From the IMG/VR virus record IMGVR_UViG_3300029928_000002, positions 1 through 64,000 of that record: DNA of 64,000 nucleotides. One strand, written 5' to 3'. A model generated the notes under the pieces. It worked only from the letters and a program-made list of their open reading frames with translations. It was not told where the DNA came from and ran no database searches. Source of the DNA: a virus. Lineage: Duplodnaviria; Caudoviricetes. Positions 1-17,870 of the stretch are shown here, in pieces. The translations under genes and the position numbers were made by a program. The first letter of the stretch is position 1, and each line of letters opens with the position of its first letter.

Positions 1-33
1 AGTATCAGAAGCGTTCTTCTGGCACATTTCTGG

Positions 34-325
34 ATATACAAAATTTTGCGGTAAATACATAAAATTTTGCGGTTCGACAAAAGTGGCAATATACTGTTAG
101 AATTTGTAAATTAGATCTGGTATTATTCTACCAGTATATTGTATGTACAGATTGCATTAATTATTTCAGTATACCAAATTTTGCGGTTTTTATTATGAGG
201 GTATTTCTTAAATATTTTTTAATGTTTGTGGTATAAAGAAATTTATTGGTATATTTAAAGCATATCTAAGACCTATTCTTAGATATACAAAATTTTGCGG
301 TCAATACATAAAATTTTGCGGTTCG
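34..325. repeat. Iteron-like array 1: five copies of AAATTTTGCGGT
   Basis: Copies at 41-52, 62-73, 176-187, 290-301, 311-322; spacings 21, 114, 114, 21 bp. The ~43-bp doublet at 34-76 recurs at 283-325. The array may extend left of the window. Confidence 0.85.
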
Positions 326-388
326 ATTCTACTAGATAATACAAAGAGTTCTTTAGATATAATTATACTATTTTTTAAAATAAAATTT

Positions 389-547
389 ATGGCAATAAAC
401 AACAAGAATAAAACATTTAGGCACATTCAATTTCCAACTAATGAAGATAATAAATTAACTTTCAGTGAGGCATTAACATACTTGGCATTAAAGCAACAAG
501 AACAATCTAATAAAAATAAAGCTACAGATTCTATAATTACTCTTTAA
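389..547 (+). pseudogene. Internally deleted paralog of the Rep-like gene at 1336 (52 aa)
   Basis: MAINNKNKTFRHIQFPTNEDNKLTFSEALTYLALKQQEQSNKNKATDSIITL. The N-terminus matches 'QHVQVPT...GEYYMYSWLK' and the C-terminus 'DSIITL' is identical to the end of 1336..2076. Confidence 0.7.
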
Positions 548-560
548 TACTGTAATTGGG

Positions 561-595
561 TTTTCACAAACTGATTGTTATTTTGTGTTTAATCA
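561..595. repeat. 35-bp direct repeat, copy 1
   Basis: TTTTCACAAACTGATTGTTATTTTGTGTTTAATCA, identical to 2274-2308. Confidence 0.95.
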
Positions 596-803
596 GATAC
601 TTCAGAAGTAAATTTTTCAGATACACCTACGGTTTGGGACTGACAGATGTACCATATATCTGTTTCTGCTAAATTTGTAAAGAATTATTCGACACCCCCT
701 CAGCGACATCAGTTGTTCCGGCCCCGTTTTTCAAACGTGAGTTTGTTTAAAGTATAGGTGAAAATATAGTATATATATAGTATATATAGATAGTCGGCAT
801 CTG

Positions 804-1284
804 GTGCAAAAATTTTAGGCTCTTATATTGGTCTAACTTTAATTTTTATTGAGGTCTAATCTTTATTAAGCTAGTAAAACTATACATAATATGTAATTTC
901 TGATATGCGCATATCGTGCAAAAATTTTAGGCTCTTATATTGGTCTAACTTTAATTTTTCCTAGGATTAAGTCTTCATTAAATTATTAAAACTATATATA
1001 ATATGTAATTTCTGATATGCGCATATCGTGCAATTTCAATATTCGTTTATACACTAGTCTAACTTTATATATTTATATATATTTGGAAAAAAGATTCTGT
1101 TAAATATTAACTTAAATATAATTTCCTGATATGCGCATATCGTGCAATTTCGATAGTTAAAATTCTCTAAAAGTTTTTTAAAGTTTTGTGTTTATCATCT
1201 TTTCATAGATATATTGGAATTGTTCTTTAAAGGAATTTCCTGATATACGCATATCGTGCAATTTTTGCACCAAATGCGCATATA
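804..1284. repeat. Iteron-like array 2: 112-114-bp period with palindromic core GATATGCGCATATC(GTGCAA); candidate replication origin
   Basis: Cores at 902-915, 1014-1027, 1128-1141 and 1242-1255 (one mismatch); 804-847 repeats at 916-959; lies directly upstream of a wHTH Rep-like gene. Confidence 0.85.
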
Positions 1285-1335
1285 GATAACAGTATACTTT
1301 AGATAGTATTTTAATTAACTAATAAATTTTTTGGC

Positions 1336-2076
1336 GTGAAAACTGAAAAGAAAATTACACAACATGTCCAAGTTCCCACAAAGATTAGAGATAATACTAA
1401 TACTATGAATATTGGAGAATATTATATGTATAGTTGGCTAAAGTTTTTTGATGGGCCGAAAGGTTGCTTTCCATCGCAAAAAGTGTTAAGTGAAAAATCT
1501 CATTTAGGAATCAAATTAATTAAATCTCTAATCACTTCTCTAGCAGATAAGGGATTCATCTCTATCACTAAAAAAGGTAGAAGTAATTATTACGAATTTG
1601 CCAAATATGAGAAATTTCAGAGATACTCAATGTTGTTTATGAAAAATAATGTATTAACCCCAAACGAAAAGATGTTTTTGATGTATATGCAACAATATAT
1701 GTATCTAGATAATACTATGCATGAGGGACGCATTTCTTTTACAGTAGATAAGATGAAAGAAATTACCAGTATGTCAAATAGGTGGATTTATAATGTACTA
1801 CAATCTCTAACTGATAAAGGTTTGGTAACTAAACTTATGAATAAGTCTAGAGATACAGAAACTGGATGTAATACAGTAACTTATATATTTGATTTAGATC
1901 AGATAGGGCAAAATCTATTATTTAAGCAAGTTACAAAGAATACTGAAGATATTGAAAAACAAAAGATAATAAATAAAGATTTTGCAAAACAGCTTTCTGA
2001 TATTAAAAAACAATTAGCTGCATTACTTAAAGATAAAATGATTGAAAATAAACTAGATAGTATTATAACATTATAA
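1336..2076 (+). CDS. Rep-like replication initiator / tandem winged-helix DNA-binding protein
   Basis: 'CFPSQKVLSEKSHLG...ITSLADKGFISITKKGRSNYY' is HTH_36/RepL-like; second wHTH 'LQSLTDKGLV'; C-terminal coiled coil. Confidence 0.75.
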   Translation: MKTEKKITQHVQVPTKIRDNTNTMNIGEYYMYSWLKFFDGPKGCFPSQKVLSEKSHLGIKLIKSLITSLADKGFISITKKGRSNYYEFAKYEKFQRYSMLFMKNNVLTPNEKMFLMYMQQYMYLDNTMHEGRISFTVDKMKEITSMSNRWIYNVLQSLTDKGLVTKLMNKSRDTETGCNTVTYIFDLDQIGQNLLFKQVTKNTEDIEKQKIINKDFAKQLSDIKKQLAALLKDKMIENKLDSIITL

Positions 2077-2095
2077 CTTTAAACTTAAATAAAAT

Positions 2096-2266
2096 ATGAC
2101 TGATCAACTTACTTCTGAAATAGTTAAATCCGAAACCAGTAAAACTATTGAAGAAAAGTTTAGAAAACAAGATTTAAAGATACAGCAGCAAACTGAACAA
2201 CTTACTAATCTTACTAAAGCTATGTATAAGTTGTTAGATAATCTTAACAAAAAAAGAATTTTATAA
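2096..2266 (+). CDS. Small coiled-coil protein (56 aa)
   Basis: ATG to TAA ORF immediately after the Rep-like gene; heptad-like composition. Confidence 0.5.
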   Translation: MTDQLTSEIVKSETSKTIEEKFRKQDLKIQQQTEQLTNLTKAMYKLLDNLNKKRIL

Positions 2267-2273
2267 CAATCTA

Positions 2274-2308
2274 TTTTCACAAACTGATTGTTATTTTGTG
2301 TTTAATCA
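2274..2308. repeat. 35-bp direct repeat, copy 2
   Basis: Identical to 561-595; sits where plus- and minus-strand genes converge. Confidence 0.95.
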
Positions 2309-6184: not shown

Positions 6185-6274
6185 GCAGGATGTCGGATGC
6201 AGGATGTCAGTAGCAGTGAATCGGATGCAGGATGTCGGATGCAGGATGTCTATGTAATGGTAGGGCAGGATGTC
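6185..6274. repeat. Five copies of GCAGGATGTC (14-bp period) in non-coding DNA
   Basis: Copies start at 6185, 6199, 6227, 6241, 6265. Confidence 0.85.
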
Positions 6275-7563: not shown

Positions 7564-7635
7564 TAGGGTATGGCGTAATCGGCAGCGCAGGAGACTCTAA
7601 ATCTCTTAGTCTAGGTTCGAGTCCTAGTACCCTAA
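7564..7635 (+). tRNA. Amber suppressor tRNA (anticodon CUA), likely tRNA-Gln(CUA)
   Basis: Acceptor TAGGGTA/TACCCTA (U1-A72, as in tRNA-Gln); D arm GCG..CGC; anticodon stem GGAGA/TCTCT with loop CT-CTA-AA (7597-7599); T arm CTAGG-TTCGAGT-CCTAG; CCA not encoded. Confidence 0.95.
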
Positions 7636-7637
7636 CT

Positions 7638-15935: not shown

Positions 15936-17870
15936 ATGGATAATGAATATGATAAAAGAAATGGTAATGTAGTTTTTAAAGAGGATTCTCATAAATATTG
16001 GGATTTAACAAATCCTACAGCTCCCTTTATTTCTGTGACTACTCTTATTGAAAGATTTGCTCAGCCTTTTAATAAGGAATTTTGGTCTATGTATAAGGCT
16101 TTAGAAAAACTAATCCCAAAAGAAGATTGGAAAACAGTTTCTAAACCATTAAGAGATTCGATGAAGATTCCAGATGATATTTATAATATGTATGACTTTA
16201 CCAAAGAAGATGTAATTAAAGTTCAACAAGATATTCTAGATGAGTGGCAAAAAACTAATCAAGAATCTTGTGAAAGGGGTACTAAGATTCATGCTGAATT
16301 GGAGAACTCTTTTTATAAAATGGGAGCTAATTGCAATCTTCAGAAGTTTGGTATCGGAGGTAAATTTATCTGTGATAAAGGTAGAACAACCTTAGACTTA
16401 GAAGATGGAGTATATCCAGAATACCTTATTAGTAGGGTTTCTGAAGACGGAGTCTTAAGACTTGCTGGACAGATTGACCTCCTAGTAAAGAAAGGACACC
16501 ATTACGTAATCATAGACCACAAAGGTCTTCCTTTAGATACTCCCATTTTAACTTCTAAGGGATGGTCTACAATGGAAGATTTAAAAGTTGGAGACAAAGT
16601 GTTTGATAAAGATGGAAATTTATGTAATGTTACAGTCAAGTCTGAAGTACATCATAATCCCTGTTACAGAATTAAATTTGACAATCACGAAAGTATAGTT
16701 GCAGACGTAGATCATAGATGGTTAGTCTCATTTAAATTGCAAAAGCCTACCAAAGAAAATCCTGATGGATACAAACATCGGGTTATGACAACTTTAGATA
16801 TAAAAATGTATCTAGATGCTATAGAAAAAAGAACCTCTTACAATATTCCGAAAATATTAAATGCCAAACCTTTAAATTTACCAAAAACTGATTTACCTAT
16901 AGACCCTTATGTTTTGGGGGCTTGGTTAGGCGATGGTTCTAAAGCCTGTGGAGTGATAACTCAAGCAAAAGATTCAAAACTTTGGGAAATTGTTAAACAA
17001 AGGGGCTTTGAACTTGGACCCAATTTAAATCACTCAGAAGAACGAAAAAATGTAGAACAGAGGACGGTATATGGGTTACAACCTCTGTTAAAAAAGTTAG
17101 GGGTTTTAAACAATAAACACATTCCAGATATTTATTTATTAGCTTCTTATGAAGATAGATTACAGTTATTACGTGGACTGATGGACACTGATGGATATTT
17201 TCATCCAAAACGTAAAAGATATGTTATGACTACTTCATTTGATTGGCAAATGGTGGGAATGAAGCAACTTCTATCTTCTTTGGGGTGTAAAGTTTCTGTG
17301 TTTAGAGAGATACATAAATGTGATGGAAAAGAATTTCCCGGATGGAATATTAATTTTACTACAAATAACTTTAACCCCTTCCTATGTAGGAATATGGAAA
17401 TAAAAAATCCATCTATTAAGAATAATAACGGATTTAGAAATATTGAATCTGTAGAAGAGGTGGAAACAGTACCAACGCAATGTATTGCGGTAGACAGTCC
17501 TTCACACACATATTTATGTACCCACTCTTTAATAGTAACTCACAATACTAATTCAAAAATAGAGAAGAAGGGTTATTTTAATAGTAAAACTAAGTCATCT
17601 GCTAAGATGAAGTTCCCATTAAACTCCCTTGAGGATTCTAATTATTGGCATTATAATCTACAGCTATCTACCTACGCGTGGATGATACAGAAATTAGATC
17701 CAGAAGCAGTTATAGATGATTTAATTCTTAACTGGTATCCACATGAAGGAGGCAATCAACAATTTCATTTGGAGTATTTAAAGAAGGAAGTAGTTAAAAT
17801 GTTATCTTATTACAAGAAACAATTACTACATCAAATACAAGAAGCTAAATATAAAGAAATAGAATACTGA
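15936..17870 (+). CDS. PD-(D/E)xK nuclease (Cas4/RecB-like exonuclease) interrupted by an intein
   Basis: 'SVTTLI', 'RGTKIH', 'AGQIDLL', 'IIDHK|TN', 'YNLQLSTYA'. Confidence 0.85.
   Translation: MDNEYDKRNGNVVFKEDSHKYWDLTNPTAPFISVTTLIERFAQPFNKEFWSMYKALEKLIPKEDWKTVSKPLRDSMKIPDDIYNMYDFTKEDVIKVQQDILDEWQKTNQESCERGTKIHAELENSFYKMGANCNLQKFGIGGKFICDKGRTTLDLEDGVYPEYLISRVSEDGVLRLAGQIDLLVKKGHHYVIIDHKGLPLDTPILTSKGWSTMEDLKVGDKVFDKDGNLCNVTVKSEVHHNPCYRIKFDNHESIVADVDHRWLVSFKLQKPTKENPDGYKHRVMTTLDIKMYLDAIEKRTSYNIPKILNAKPLNLPKTDLPIDPYVLGAWLGDGSKACGVITQAKDSKLWEIVKQRGFELGPNLNHSEERKNVEQRTVYGLQPLLKKLGVLNNKHIPDIYLLASYEDRLQLLRGLMDTDGYFHPKRKRYVMTTSFDWQMVGMKQLLSSLGCKVSVFREIHKCDGKEFPGWNINFTTNNFNPFLCRNMEIKNPSIKNNNGFRNIESVEEVETVPTQCIAVDSPSHTYLCTHSLIVTHNTNSKIEKKGYFNSKTKSSAKMKFPLNSLEDSNYWHYNLQLSTYAWMIQKLDPEAVIDDLILNWYPHEGGNQQFHLEYLKKEVVKMLSYYKKQLLHQIQEAKYKEIEY
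16524..17546 (+). mobile_element. Intein (341 aa) with LAGLIDADG endonuclease; class 3 WCT signature; N-terminal Gly
   Basis: Block A GLPLDTPIL; block B DHRW; LAGLIDADG motifs 'LGAWLGDG' and 'LLRGLMDTDG'; block F TQCIAV; block G VTHN followed by Thr. Confidence 0.9.

Follow-up and report, generated by a model that had tools for sequence, protein, structure and literature searches.

A probable replication locus of the plasmid type lies at the left end of a crAss-like phage genome, in the first 2,308 base pairs (bp) of a 64,000-nucleotide (nt) stretch (hereafter the window) that begins at base 1 of the one-contig, 155,301-bp virus record IMGVR_UViG_3300029928_000002 (Duplodnaviria; Caudoviricetes). 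The locus contains two tandem modules, A and B, each composed of a long-period repeat array, a leader, a winged helix-turn-helix (wHTH) gene or its remnant, and a 35-bp element. Sequence comparison, a predicted protein structure, and analogy to known replicons together make it probable that the modules are replication origin and initiator cassettes of plasmid style. That each pairs a DNA-binding protein with its cognate sites in an exchangeable cassette is very likely from a comparison of natural strains. To our knowledge, experiments have yet to define a replication origin in any crAss-like phage, and this locus would provide a concrete candidate for both an origin and its initiator.

An earlier note on this DNA, made from its letters alone, had described the two arrays, the open reading frames (ORFs) at 389-547 and 1336-2076, a small ORF (2096-2266), and two identical 35-bp copies. 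All of these were present where it had placed them, the likeness it had seen between the leaders at 333-359 and 1283-1305 is real, and its interpretation is largely correct. The features of the locus are as follows, in window coordinates.

1..330, plus strand: array A, five iteron copies with core AAATTTTGCGGT, starting at 41, 62, 176, 290, and 311
333..359, plus strand: leader of module A, a TAGATAA...CTTTAGATA box ~30 nt ahead of the start codon, seen in the sequence
389..547, plus strand: rep A relic, an ORF of 52 amino acids (aa) sharing both termini with the intact 256-aa Rep A (P0210)
561..595, plus strand: copy 1 of the 35-bp element, closing module A on its 3' side, where module B joins it
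588..741, plus strand: left arm of module B, with a GC-rich patch at ~690-725; kept in strains without module A
742..796, plus strand: degenerate AAGTATAG-type 8-mer repeats, a proposed DNA-unwinding element
797..1264, plus strand: array B, a degenerate direct copy at 797-814 and four ~30-bp iterons
1265..1283, minus strand: inverted B iteron copy, between the last direct copy and the promoter-like box
1283..1305, plus strand: leader of module B, sharing the TAGATAA...CTTTAGATA box of module A
1336..2076, plus strand: rep B, encoding a 246-aa tandem winged-helix initiator-like protein with a long C-terminal helix
2096..2266, plus strand: small 56-aa ORF, the 3' remains of a Rep C-type gene
2263..2308, plus strand: terminator-like hairpin, formed by the flank 2263-2271 and part of copy 2 of the 35-bp element (2274-2308)

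Exchange of Modules among Near-Identical Strains

More than 20 assemblies of the same phage lineage were recovered by exact-protein look-ups, and their flanks are approximately 97-99% identical. Module B alone was found in L003, L004, and L013, where genome position 154912 is joined directly to window position 588. Module A therefore corresponds to an 846-bp indel with edges at a 13-14-nt imperfect repeat, ending at position 587 inside copy 1 of the 35-bp element. Module A alone was found in L146, L149, L150, and L151, all with an intact 256-aa Rep A and a junction of position 565 to 2188 in a 9-nt microhomology. A relic of A followed by B occurs in this window and in L006, while L147 combines an intact A with a B-type gene of 249 aa, which is the length of a 90%-identical variant. 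Finally, L145, L148, and L152 carry an intact module A, an orphan array B, and a third module, C. The partial contig L143 belongs to the same arrangement and includes the end of the A gene, the orphan array B, and module C. It keeps window positions 438-1354 at 98.8% identity, which covers array B in full and rep B as far as its first codons; 1,085 new bases then stand in place of 1355-2104, and identity returns at 2105. The new bases contain module C, which is complete and canonical: a GC-rich patch and a perfect AAGTATAGTT trio are accompanied by four iterons spaced 21 bp apart, an inverted repeat, and the gene for the 274-aa Rep C.

Since near-identical flanks carry A, B, A with B, or A with an orphan B and C, the cassettes have in all likelihood been exchanged in nature. 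This upholds the exchange part of the proposal of swappable origin and initiator cassettes made in the earlier note, and the initiator part gains from the fold described below, but module A of this genome does not qualify as a second working cassette. The ORF at 389-547 equals Rep A without residues ~36-239, an in-frame deletion of ~204 residues that removes both winged-helix domains, and contigs from three sequencing runs carry ~606 additional bases at 487-492. Judged from its sequence, module A is here a relic and not a working cassette. Similarly, in strains with Rep C the stretch 2096-2266 encodes the C-terminal end of that protein, which makes the small ORF in this window the stub of a C-type gene that was replaced; in other B strains, this ORF encodes 110 or 154 aa. 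The series of A, B, C, relics, and orphans in near-identical backbones would offer a ready-made natural test of specificity, incompatibility, and competition during co-infection.

The arrays themselves are stable among strains, with the same layouts recurring in more than 15 independent assemblies. The spacing of 112/114/114 bp in array B was identical in L003, L004, L006, L013, L143, L147, and L148, and it held wherever four copies are present; three copies were found in L009, L145, L152, and one sequencing run. In array A, the copies within the window are spaced at 21, 114, 114, and 21 bp, and a sixth copy lies across the contig junction at genome position 155101, which is 111 bp upstream of window position 41 and is preceded by a degenerate AAGTATAG-type 8-mer block and a terminator-like hairpin. 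The resulting layout of 111/21/114/114/21 was found upstream of an intact Rep A in all eight other assemblies examined. Where A is the sole module, its array precedes an intact Rep A without any change, and the same is true of B with Rep B; each array is therefore presumably sufficient for function. Variable sites among the strains numbered 17 of 164 in iterons and 17 of 324 in spacers, from strains too similar for the comparison to be informative. Four loose contig ends, at window positions 1277 and 2105 (run X4) and 1951 and 1983 (run X2), continue into sequence unlike the window, which points to additional alleles of both the array and the rep gene in these samples.

The assembly itself closes within array A, with one 249-bp repeat unit collapsed: the final 130 bases of the contig (genome 155172-155301) equal window positions 1-77 fused to 327-379. 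As this contig-end overlap skips one 249-bp unit, the record is called linear in IMG/VR. On a different contig, of 156,689 bp, a gene call of 106 aa spans this collapsed form too, which may therefore be a real copy-number variant of array A.

Each Initiator-Like Gene Has Its Own Repeats

Neither set of repeats is scattered through the genome. At up to one mismatch, motif A is confined to this region of the 155,301-bp genome apart from a single one-mismatch match at position 152,300, while the array B palindrome (up to two mismatches) and the 35-mer (up to six mismatches) occur nowhere else in it. The repeats are therefore not a product of chance. In array B, the iterons lie at 895-926, 1007-1038, 1121-1152, and 1235-1264, each with a core (starts at 902, 1014, 1128, and 1242) in which GTGCAA follows the 14-bp perfect palindrome GATATGCGCATATC, and the degenerate copy at 797-814 abuts the 8-mer block. 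A second motif, TATATTGGTCTAACTTTA, was found at 824-841, 936-953, and 1050-1067, which is 15-17 nt past the degenerate copy and the first two iterons, but does not follow the third or fourth iteron; another factor may have its site there. The only alignable DNA between modules A and B is the 35-mer and the 8-mer block.

The same arrangement was found beside related genes in other phages. In the first distant homologue contigs, the order was a GC-rich patch, two to three copies of AAGTATAG, three protein-specific direct repeats at 21-23 bp, often an inverted copy, and an AT-rich leader. Approximately 25 other modules of the family have three AAGTATAG 8-mers followed by three to four direct repeats at 20-23 bp or multiples thereof, and GC-rich patches likewise lie ahead of their 8-mers. 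The trio is located 150-215 bp before the start codon in most related modules. Every homologue elsewhere has its own repeat motif, in keeping with the suggestion in the earlier note of a cognate array for each paralog.

As an approach independent of protein similarity, IMG/VR was searched at the DNA level for three AAGTATAG 8-mers, with no protein criterion. This returned 113 loci, many of them on contigs of 140-200 kb. An ORF of the Rep family begins within 700 bp downstream on the same strand in 27 of these, and the downstream sequence was too short to judge in 20 others. The trio would be a practical DNA signature for such origins in metagenomes.

Both leaders of the window contain the TAGATAA...CTTTAGATA box, 30-31 nt ahead of the start codons (31 nt for Rep B), which is likely a -7-like promoter element. 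The motif TAnnTTTG is the -7 promoter box of Bacteroidota, and exact matches were present in the last 100 nt of 14 of the 24 distinct leaders, as against 7% of background 100-nt windows. An inverted iteron copy adjoins the promoter of module B, and inverted copies occupy the equivalent place in at least L016, L022, L108, and module C; none was found at the promoter of module A.

At the level of sequence, the module order is the anatomy of an iteron plasmid origin of the pPS10, pSC101, and F type. Same-direction repeats of 17-22 bp placed approximately two helical turns apart beside rep are present in module C and in ~25 relatives, AT-rich 8-mer repeats beside the iterons are conserved across the family, and module B has the inverted half-site repeat at the rep promoter. 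In contrast, the repeats in the window, while also in one direction and beside rep, lie 111-114 bp apart, with two 21-bp doublets kept only in array A.

Module stacking is not restricted to this lineage. Stacked modules, each with its own repeats, were found in L084, L036, and L108, and stacked modules or orphan iteron arrays in other large phages included L090, L084, L036, L108, and L144. In L090 (relative positions -520 to 0), for example, a gene-less trio with four iterons is followed by a partial block with repeats resembling the B palindrome and then by an apparently working module. As read from these sequences, module turnover that leaves fossils is therefore widespread.

The Rep Protein Resembles Plasmid Initiators

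In Pfam, the first half of Rep B matched HTH_36 and DnaD_N, the latter above its cut-off, and the second half matched winged helices of the TrmB and TFIIE type. Its PHROG matches were annotated as 'replication initiation O-like', 'DnaD-like helicase loader', and 'replication initiation protein'. The AlphaFold model, with a predicted local distance difference test (pLDDT) score of 92, contains two winged-helix units and a C-terminal helix at residues 194-245, giving the predicted tandem two-winged-helix architecture of initiators of iteron-type replicons. In a Foldseek search with this model, 37 of the first 38 matches listed were complexes of RepE54 with iteron DNA or of Rep with single-stranded DNA of the DNA-unwinding element (8ac8 and 8aan); the alignments to RepE spanned ~215 columns and both domains, with a probability of 1.0 and a template modeling (TM) score of ~0.5. 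VIA-align ranked the N-domains of staphylococcal RepA initiators first (Z 9.2 over 105 residues) and also listed DnaD-N.

An exhaustive profile-free search placed at least 244 representative clusters in the family at an E-value of at most 1e-3 and 123 at 1e-10 or below. The members listed were mostly 230-260 aa long and aligned over nearly their full length; HTH_36 was found in all 60 aligned members and DnaD_N in 55 of the 60. Rep A and Rep B share 38% identity and were sisters (Shimodaira-Hasegawa-like approximate likelihood ratio support of 96) in a quick maximum-likelihood tree of 81 members, a placement that is provisional because Rep B lies on a long branch. Neither the region nor the protein had a match among INPHARED phages by megablast or tblastn, pattern-based IMG/VR searches using Rep B and Rep C yielded no relatives, and the family was not found in crAss001, cr125_1, or MT835470.

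Genomic position weakly favors an origin. The rep locus forms a small plus-strand island in an 18-kb region separating two large divergent gene blocks, and the Rep gene of a complete 183-kb relative is placed where the blocks diverge, with the minimum of cumulative GC skew ~6 kb away. The skew comparison proposed in the earlier note thus gave a mixed outcome, as the minimum in this genome is at 14-15 kb, ~12 kb off the module, and the skew follows gene orientation.

That distance is one of several observations that weigh against an origin with an iteron-type initiator. Rep B has no match to Pfam Rep_3 (PF01051) at an E-value of up to 0.1, and Rep_3 is absent from the 25 families that 60 family members matched most often. 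Winged-helix folds are also common in repressors, and generic wHTH regulators scored less than one Z unit below the initiators (Z 8-9 in VIA-align), so that the fold does not by itself decide the matter. The search for DnaA boxes gave no convincing one, returning a single DnaA-box-like site with one mismatch. Helical phasing of A-tracts in the spacers was not significant. Additionally, a working origin with iterons at 112-114 bp would be unusual and without known precedent.

An alternative is that the wHTH proteins are transcription regulators, such as early-gene or immunity-type repressors, with the arrays as their operators and no role for the locus in replication. The MarR, BlaI/MecI, and AdcR repressors score near the initiators in sequence and VIA-align comparisons, an inverted repeat at a promoter is the classic form of an operator, and GC skew does not pinpoint the locus. 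We nonetheless regard this as distinctly unlikely. The full-length, two-domain alignment is to RepE and not to single-domain repressors, the protein matches DnaD_N and replication-initiator PHROGs, and a conserved AT-rich 8-mer trio beside same-direction repeats two turns apart is the anatomy of an origin rather than of an operator. Moreover, the only downstream gene such a regulator would have is its own.

A partition or plasmid-maintenance system is a still weaker candidate, and a very improbable one. Here, the arrays would act as centromeres bound by a wHTH protein, as in TubR-tubC and ParR-parC, to maintain a plasmid-like carrier state. Weak profile matches to TubR were obtained (E ~1e-3), centromeres are repeat arrays upstream of an autoregulated binding-protein gene, arrays as long as A and B would be well suited to wrapping a filament adaptor, and a phage-plasmid lifestyle has been proposed for crAssphage (doi 10.1101/2024.03.20.585998). 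However, no nucleoside triphosphatase of the ParA, ParM, or TubZ type was found beside the locus, either by Pfam and PHROG searches of the neighbors or in the gene tables of 20 related loci, and Rep B has two winged-helix domains, like RepE, where TubR has one.

A Proposed Mechanism of Initiation and Module Turnover

In the origin and initiator reading, window positions 1-2308 and ~260 bp across the contig junction would form a hot spot holding plasmid-style replication modules. A complete module would consist, in order, of a GC-rich patch, AAGTATAG-type 8-mers, initiator-specific iterons, an inverted copy (in B and C), a host-type promoter, and rep. Module B would be the working one in this genome, next to the relic of A. 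Monomers of Rep B are expected to bind the iterons, its own repeats. In the plasmid F, the unwinding element of oriS contains repeated 8-mers, and RepE binds these as single-stranded DNA while seated on an iteron (PMC10602881). By analogy, the 8-mer repeats at 742-796 are likely the DNA-unwinding element of module B: iteron-bound Rep may also grip one strand of the neighboring 8-mers, as in the loop-back model of RepE, and the DNA thus opened could be offered to the phage replisome. Rep bound at the inverted repeat would turn off its own promoter, which would make the copy at 1265-1283 an autorepression operator. Over time, modules may be gained, lost, and replaced through recombination at short homologies, leaving orphan arrays and gene stubs behind.

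The two 35-bp copies, at 561-595 and 2274-2308, are identical. The element was found at the right end of every module in this lineage, and at that end of the locus in every strain, including those with A only; it was not found in the other phages. The hairpin beginning at 2263 has a 9-bp stem followed by a U-rich tail (z = -2.0) and faces minus-strand genes convergently. We read the element as a locus terminator that was duplicated when modules stacked. As a structured RNA it was rejected, since the copy at 561 lacks the kind of flank with which the copy at 2274 completes its hairpin.

The ~114-bp Period Is Restricted to Two Arrays

The earlier note had expected a period of ~114 bp to be kept across cassettes. 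This did not hold, since a spacing of 111-114 bp was found only in arrays A and B, while module C and ~25 other modules have iterons 20-23 bp apart. Its proposed comparison of homologues therefore had a divided result, in which the protein-specific upstream repeats were general and the long period was not. The corresponding figure of ~11 helical turns was approximately right: 112-114 bp amounts to 10.7-10.9 turns at 10.5 bp per turn and reaches exactly 11 turns only at 10.36 bp per turn, so that phasing is only approximate.

On the simplest reading of these sequences, the expansion from ~21 to ~114 bp happened once, in the common ancestor of A and B, and the period was held while spacers and iteron cores diverged, which argues for a constraint on the spacing. 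In known iteron origins, altered iteron spacing disrupts Rep binding (PMC10602881). A spacing five-fold wider, kept in two arrays with spacers that cannot be aligned, would contradict the expectation from plasmids that spacing is unchangeable. A weight-matrix scan found no decayed iterons inside the spacers, and intrinsic spacer curvature was dropped as an explanation given the A-tract result above.

One possible account, which we consider unlikely as a whole, is that the 111-114-bp arrays represent a new origin geometry, in which initiators ~11 turns apart are bridged and the AT-rich spacers between them looped or wrapped, instead of forming a tight cluster, and that orphan arrays (A here, and B in the strains with A and C) are retained as incompatibility decoys that titrate or handcuff the initiator of co-infecting rivals dependent on that Rep type.

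That the arrays are instead transcribed into decoy, guide, or regulatory repeat RNAs, with the periodicity reflecting RNA units, is scarcely credible: both arrays have a promoter-like TTTGTT-16/17 nt-TATAGT on their left edge and the array A spacers hold a 17-nt inverted repeat, but Rfam gave no match, the repeat units have no significant fold and are conserved between units only in their ~30-bp cores, and related modules pack the same cores at 21 bp, which leaves no space for RNA units. In a scan for sigma-70-type promoter consensus sequences, the count was not above that of shuffled sequences, and the only terminator-like match lay inside an array A spacer.

Comparison with Known Systems

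The closest likeness is to iteron theta replicons (mini-F ori2 with RepE, RepA of pPS10 and pSC101, pi of R6K, and TrfA of RK2), which share the tandem winged-helix initiator, the same-direction repeats beside AT-rich repeats, the inverted copy at the rep promoter, and the rep gene directly downstream; the 8-mer repeats are shared with the unwinding element of F oriS (PMC10602881). In contrast to these replicons, the family here falls outside Pfam Rep_3, with an N-domain resembling DnaD_N and HTH_36 and a long C-terminal helix, DnaA boxes were not found at this locus, arrays A and B are spaced at 111-114 bp instead of ~22 bp, and the carrier is a 155-kb genome of a lytic-type phage and not a plasmid.

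Mosaicism of replication modules in lambdoid phages and the PLE satellites of Vibrio likewise involves the DNA-binding part of an initiator and its iterons being swapped together in near-identical genomes. For PLE, an origin-directed nuclease has been proposed as the driver of replicon swapping (PMC8263062), while no nuclease was identified in this window. The modules described here differ from both in stacking in tandem and leaving orphan arrays and stubs. The iterons of lambda also lie inside the O gene, whereas those found here are upstream of rep.

The prototypic crAssphage has two RepL genes with two predicted origins beside them, reported in a preprint whose text has no mention of iterons (doi 10.1101/2024.03.20.585998). 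It is similar in being a crAss-type phage with more than one plasmid-like initiator gene, but Rep B has no match to RepL (PF05732); several of its relatives have weak precomputed RepL matches among those to many wHTH families. A full-text literature search returned no work linking crAss-like phages to iterons. What is new here is the full set of alleles at a single locus, together with the arrays of long period.

Staphylococcal RepA_N proteins (RepA of pSK41 and pTZ2162) and the DnaD N-domain share an N-terminal winged helix with an extension. RepA_N differs in its second domain and repeat layout, and RepA_N plasmids have their origin inside the rep gene. A looser resemblance is to the GalR-HU repressosome, in which two operators ~113 bp apart, hence ~11 helical turns, are joined by protein contact with the spacer bent; that system is a two-site transcription loop, as opposed to an origin array of four to six sites, and no HU or IHF site or intrinsic bend was detected in the arrays here.

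Genomic Setting

Terminase and portal proteins of this genome matched crAss-type families. The terminase is 27% identical to those of Crassvirales and 41-43% identical to those of two unannotated human-gut phage records. Two terminase-like ORFs were found in the window: the one at 21115-23532 matches a crAss-type terminase PHROG, and the one at 15936-17870 contains no TAG codons and matches terminase, exonuclease, and primase PHROGs.

Reading TAG as a sense codon doubled the coding capacity in ORFs of at least 150 codons across the whole genome. Recoded ORFs listed for the window are located at ~9-63 kb, and the plus strand carries most of them. At 7564-7636 there is a suppressor tRNA whose anticodon is CTA (labeled tRNA-Pyl by ARAGORN). 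The reading frame of Rep B has no in-frame TAG; its start codon is GTG in this genome and ATG in sister strains.

Directly upstream of the locus is a DEAD-box helicase gene (genome 152902-154437; 1256-2989 in L003), which encodes 577 aa in sister strains; in L003, this reading requires an in-frame TAG to be read as sense. Other strains have a minus-strand gene of 485-488 aa as the left flank in place of the helicase, so that the left neighbor is polymorphic too. Lastly, the GC-richer early region contains a 14-bp tandem repeat, GCAGGATGTCGGAT, in 4.7 copies at window positions 6185-6250.

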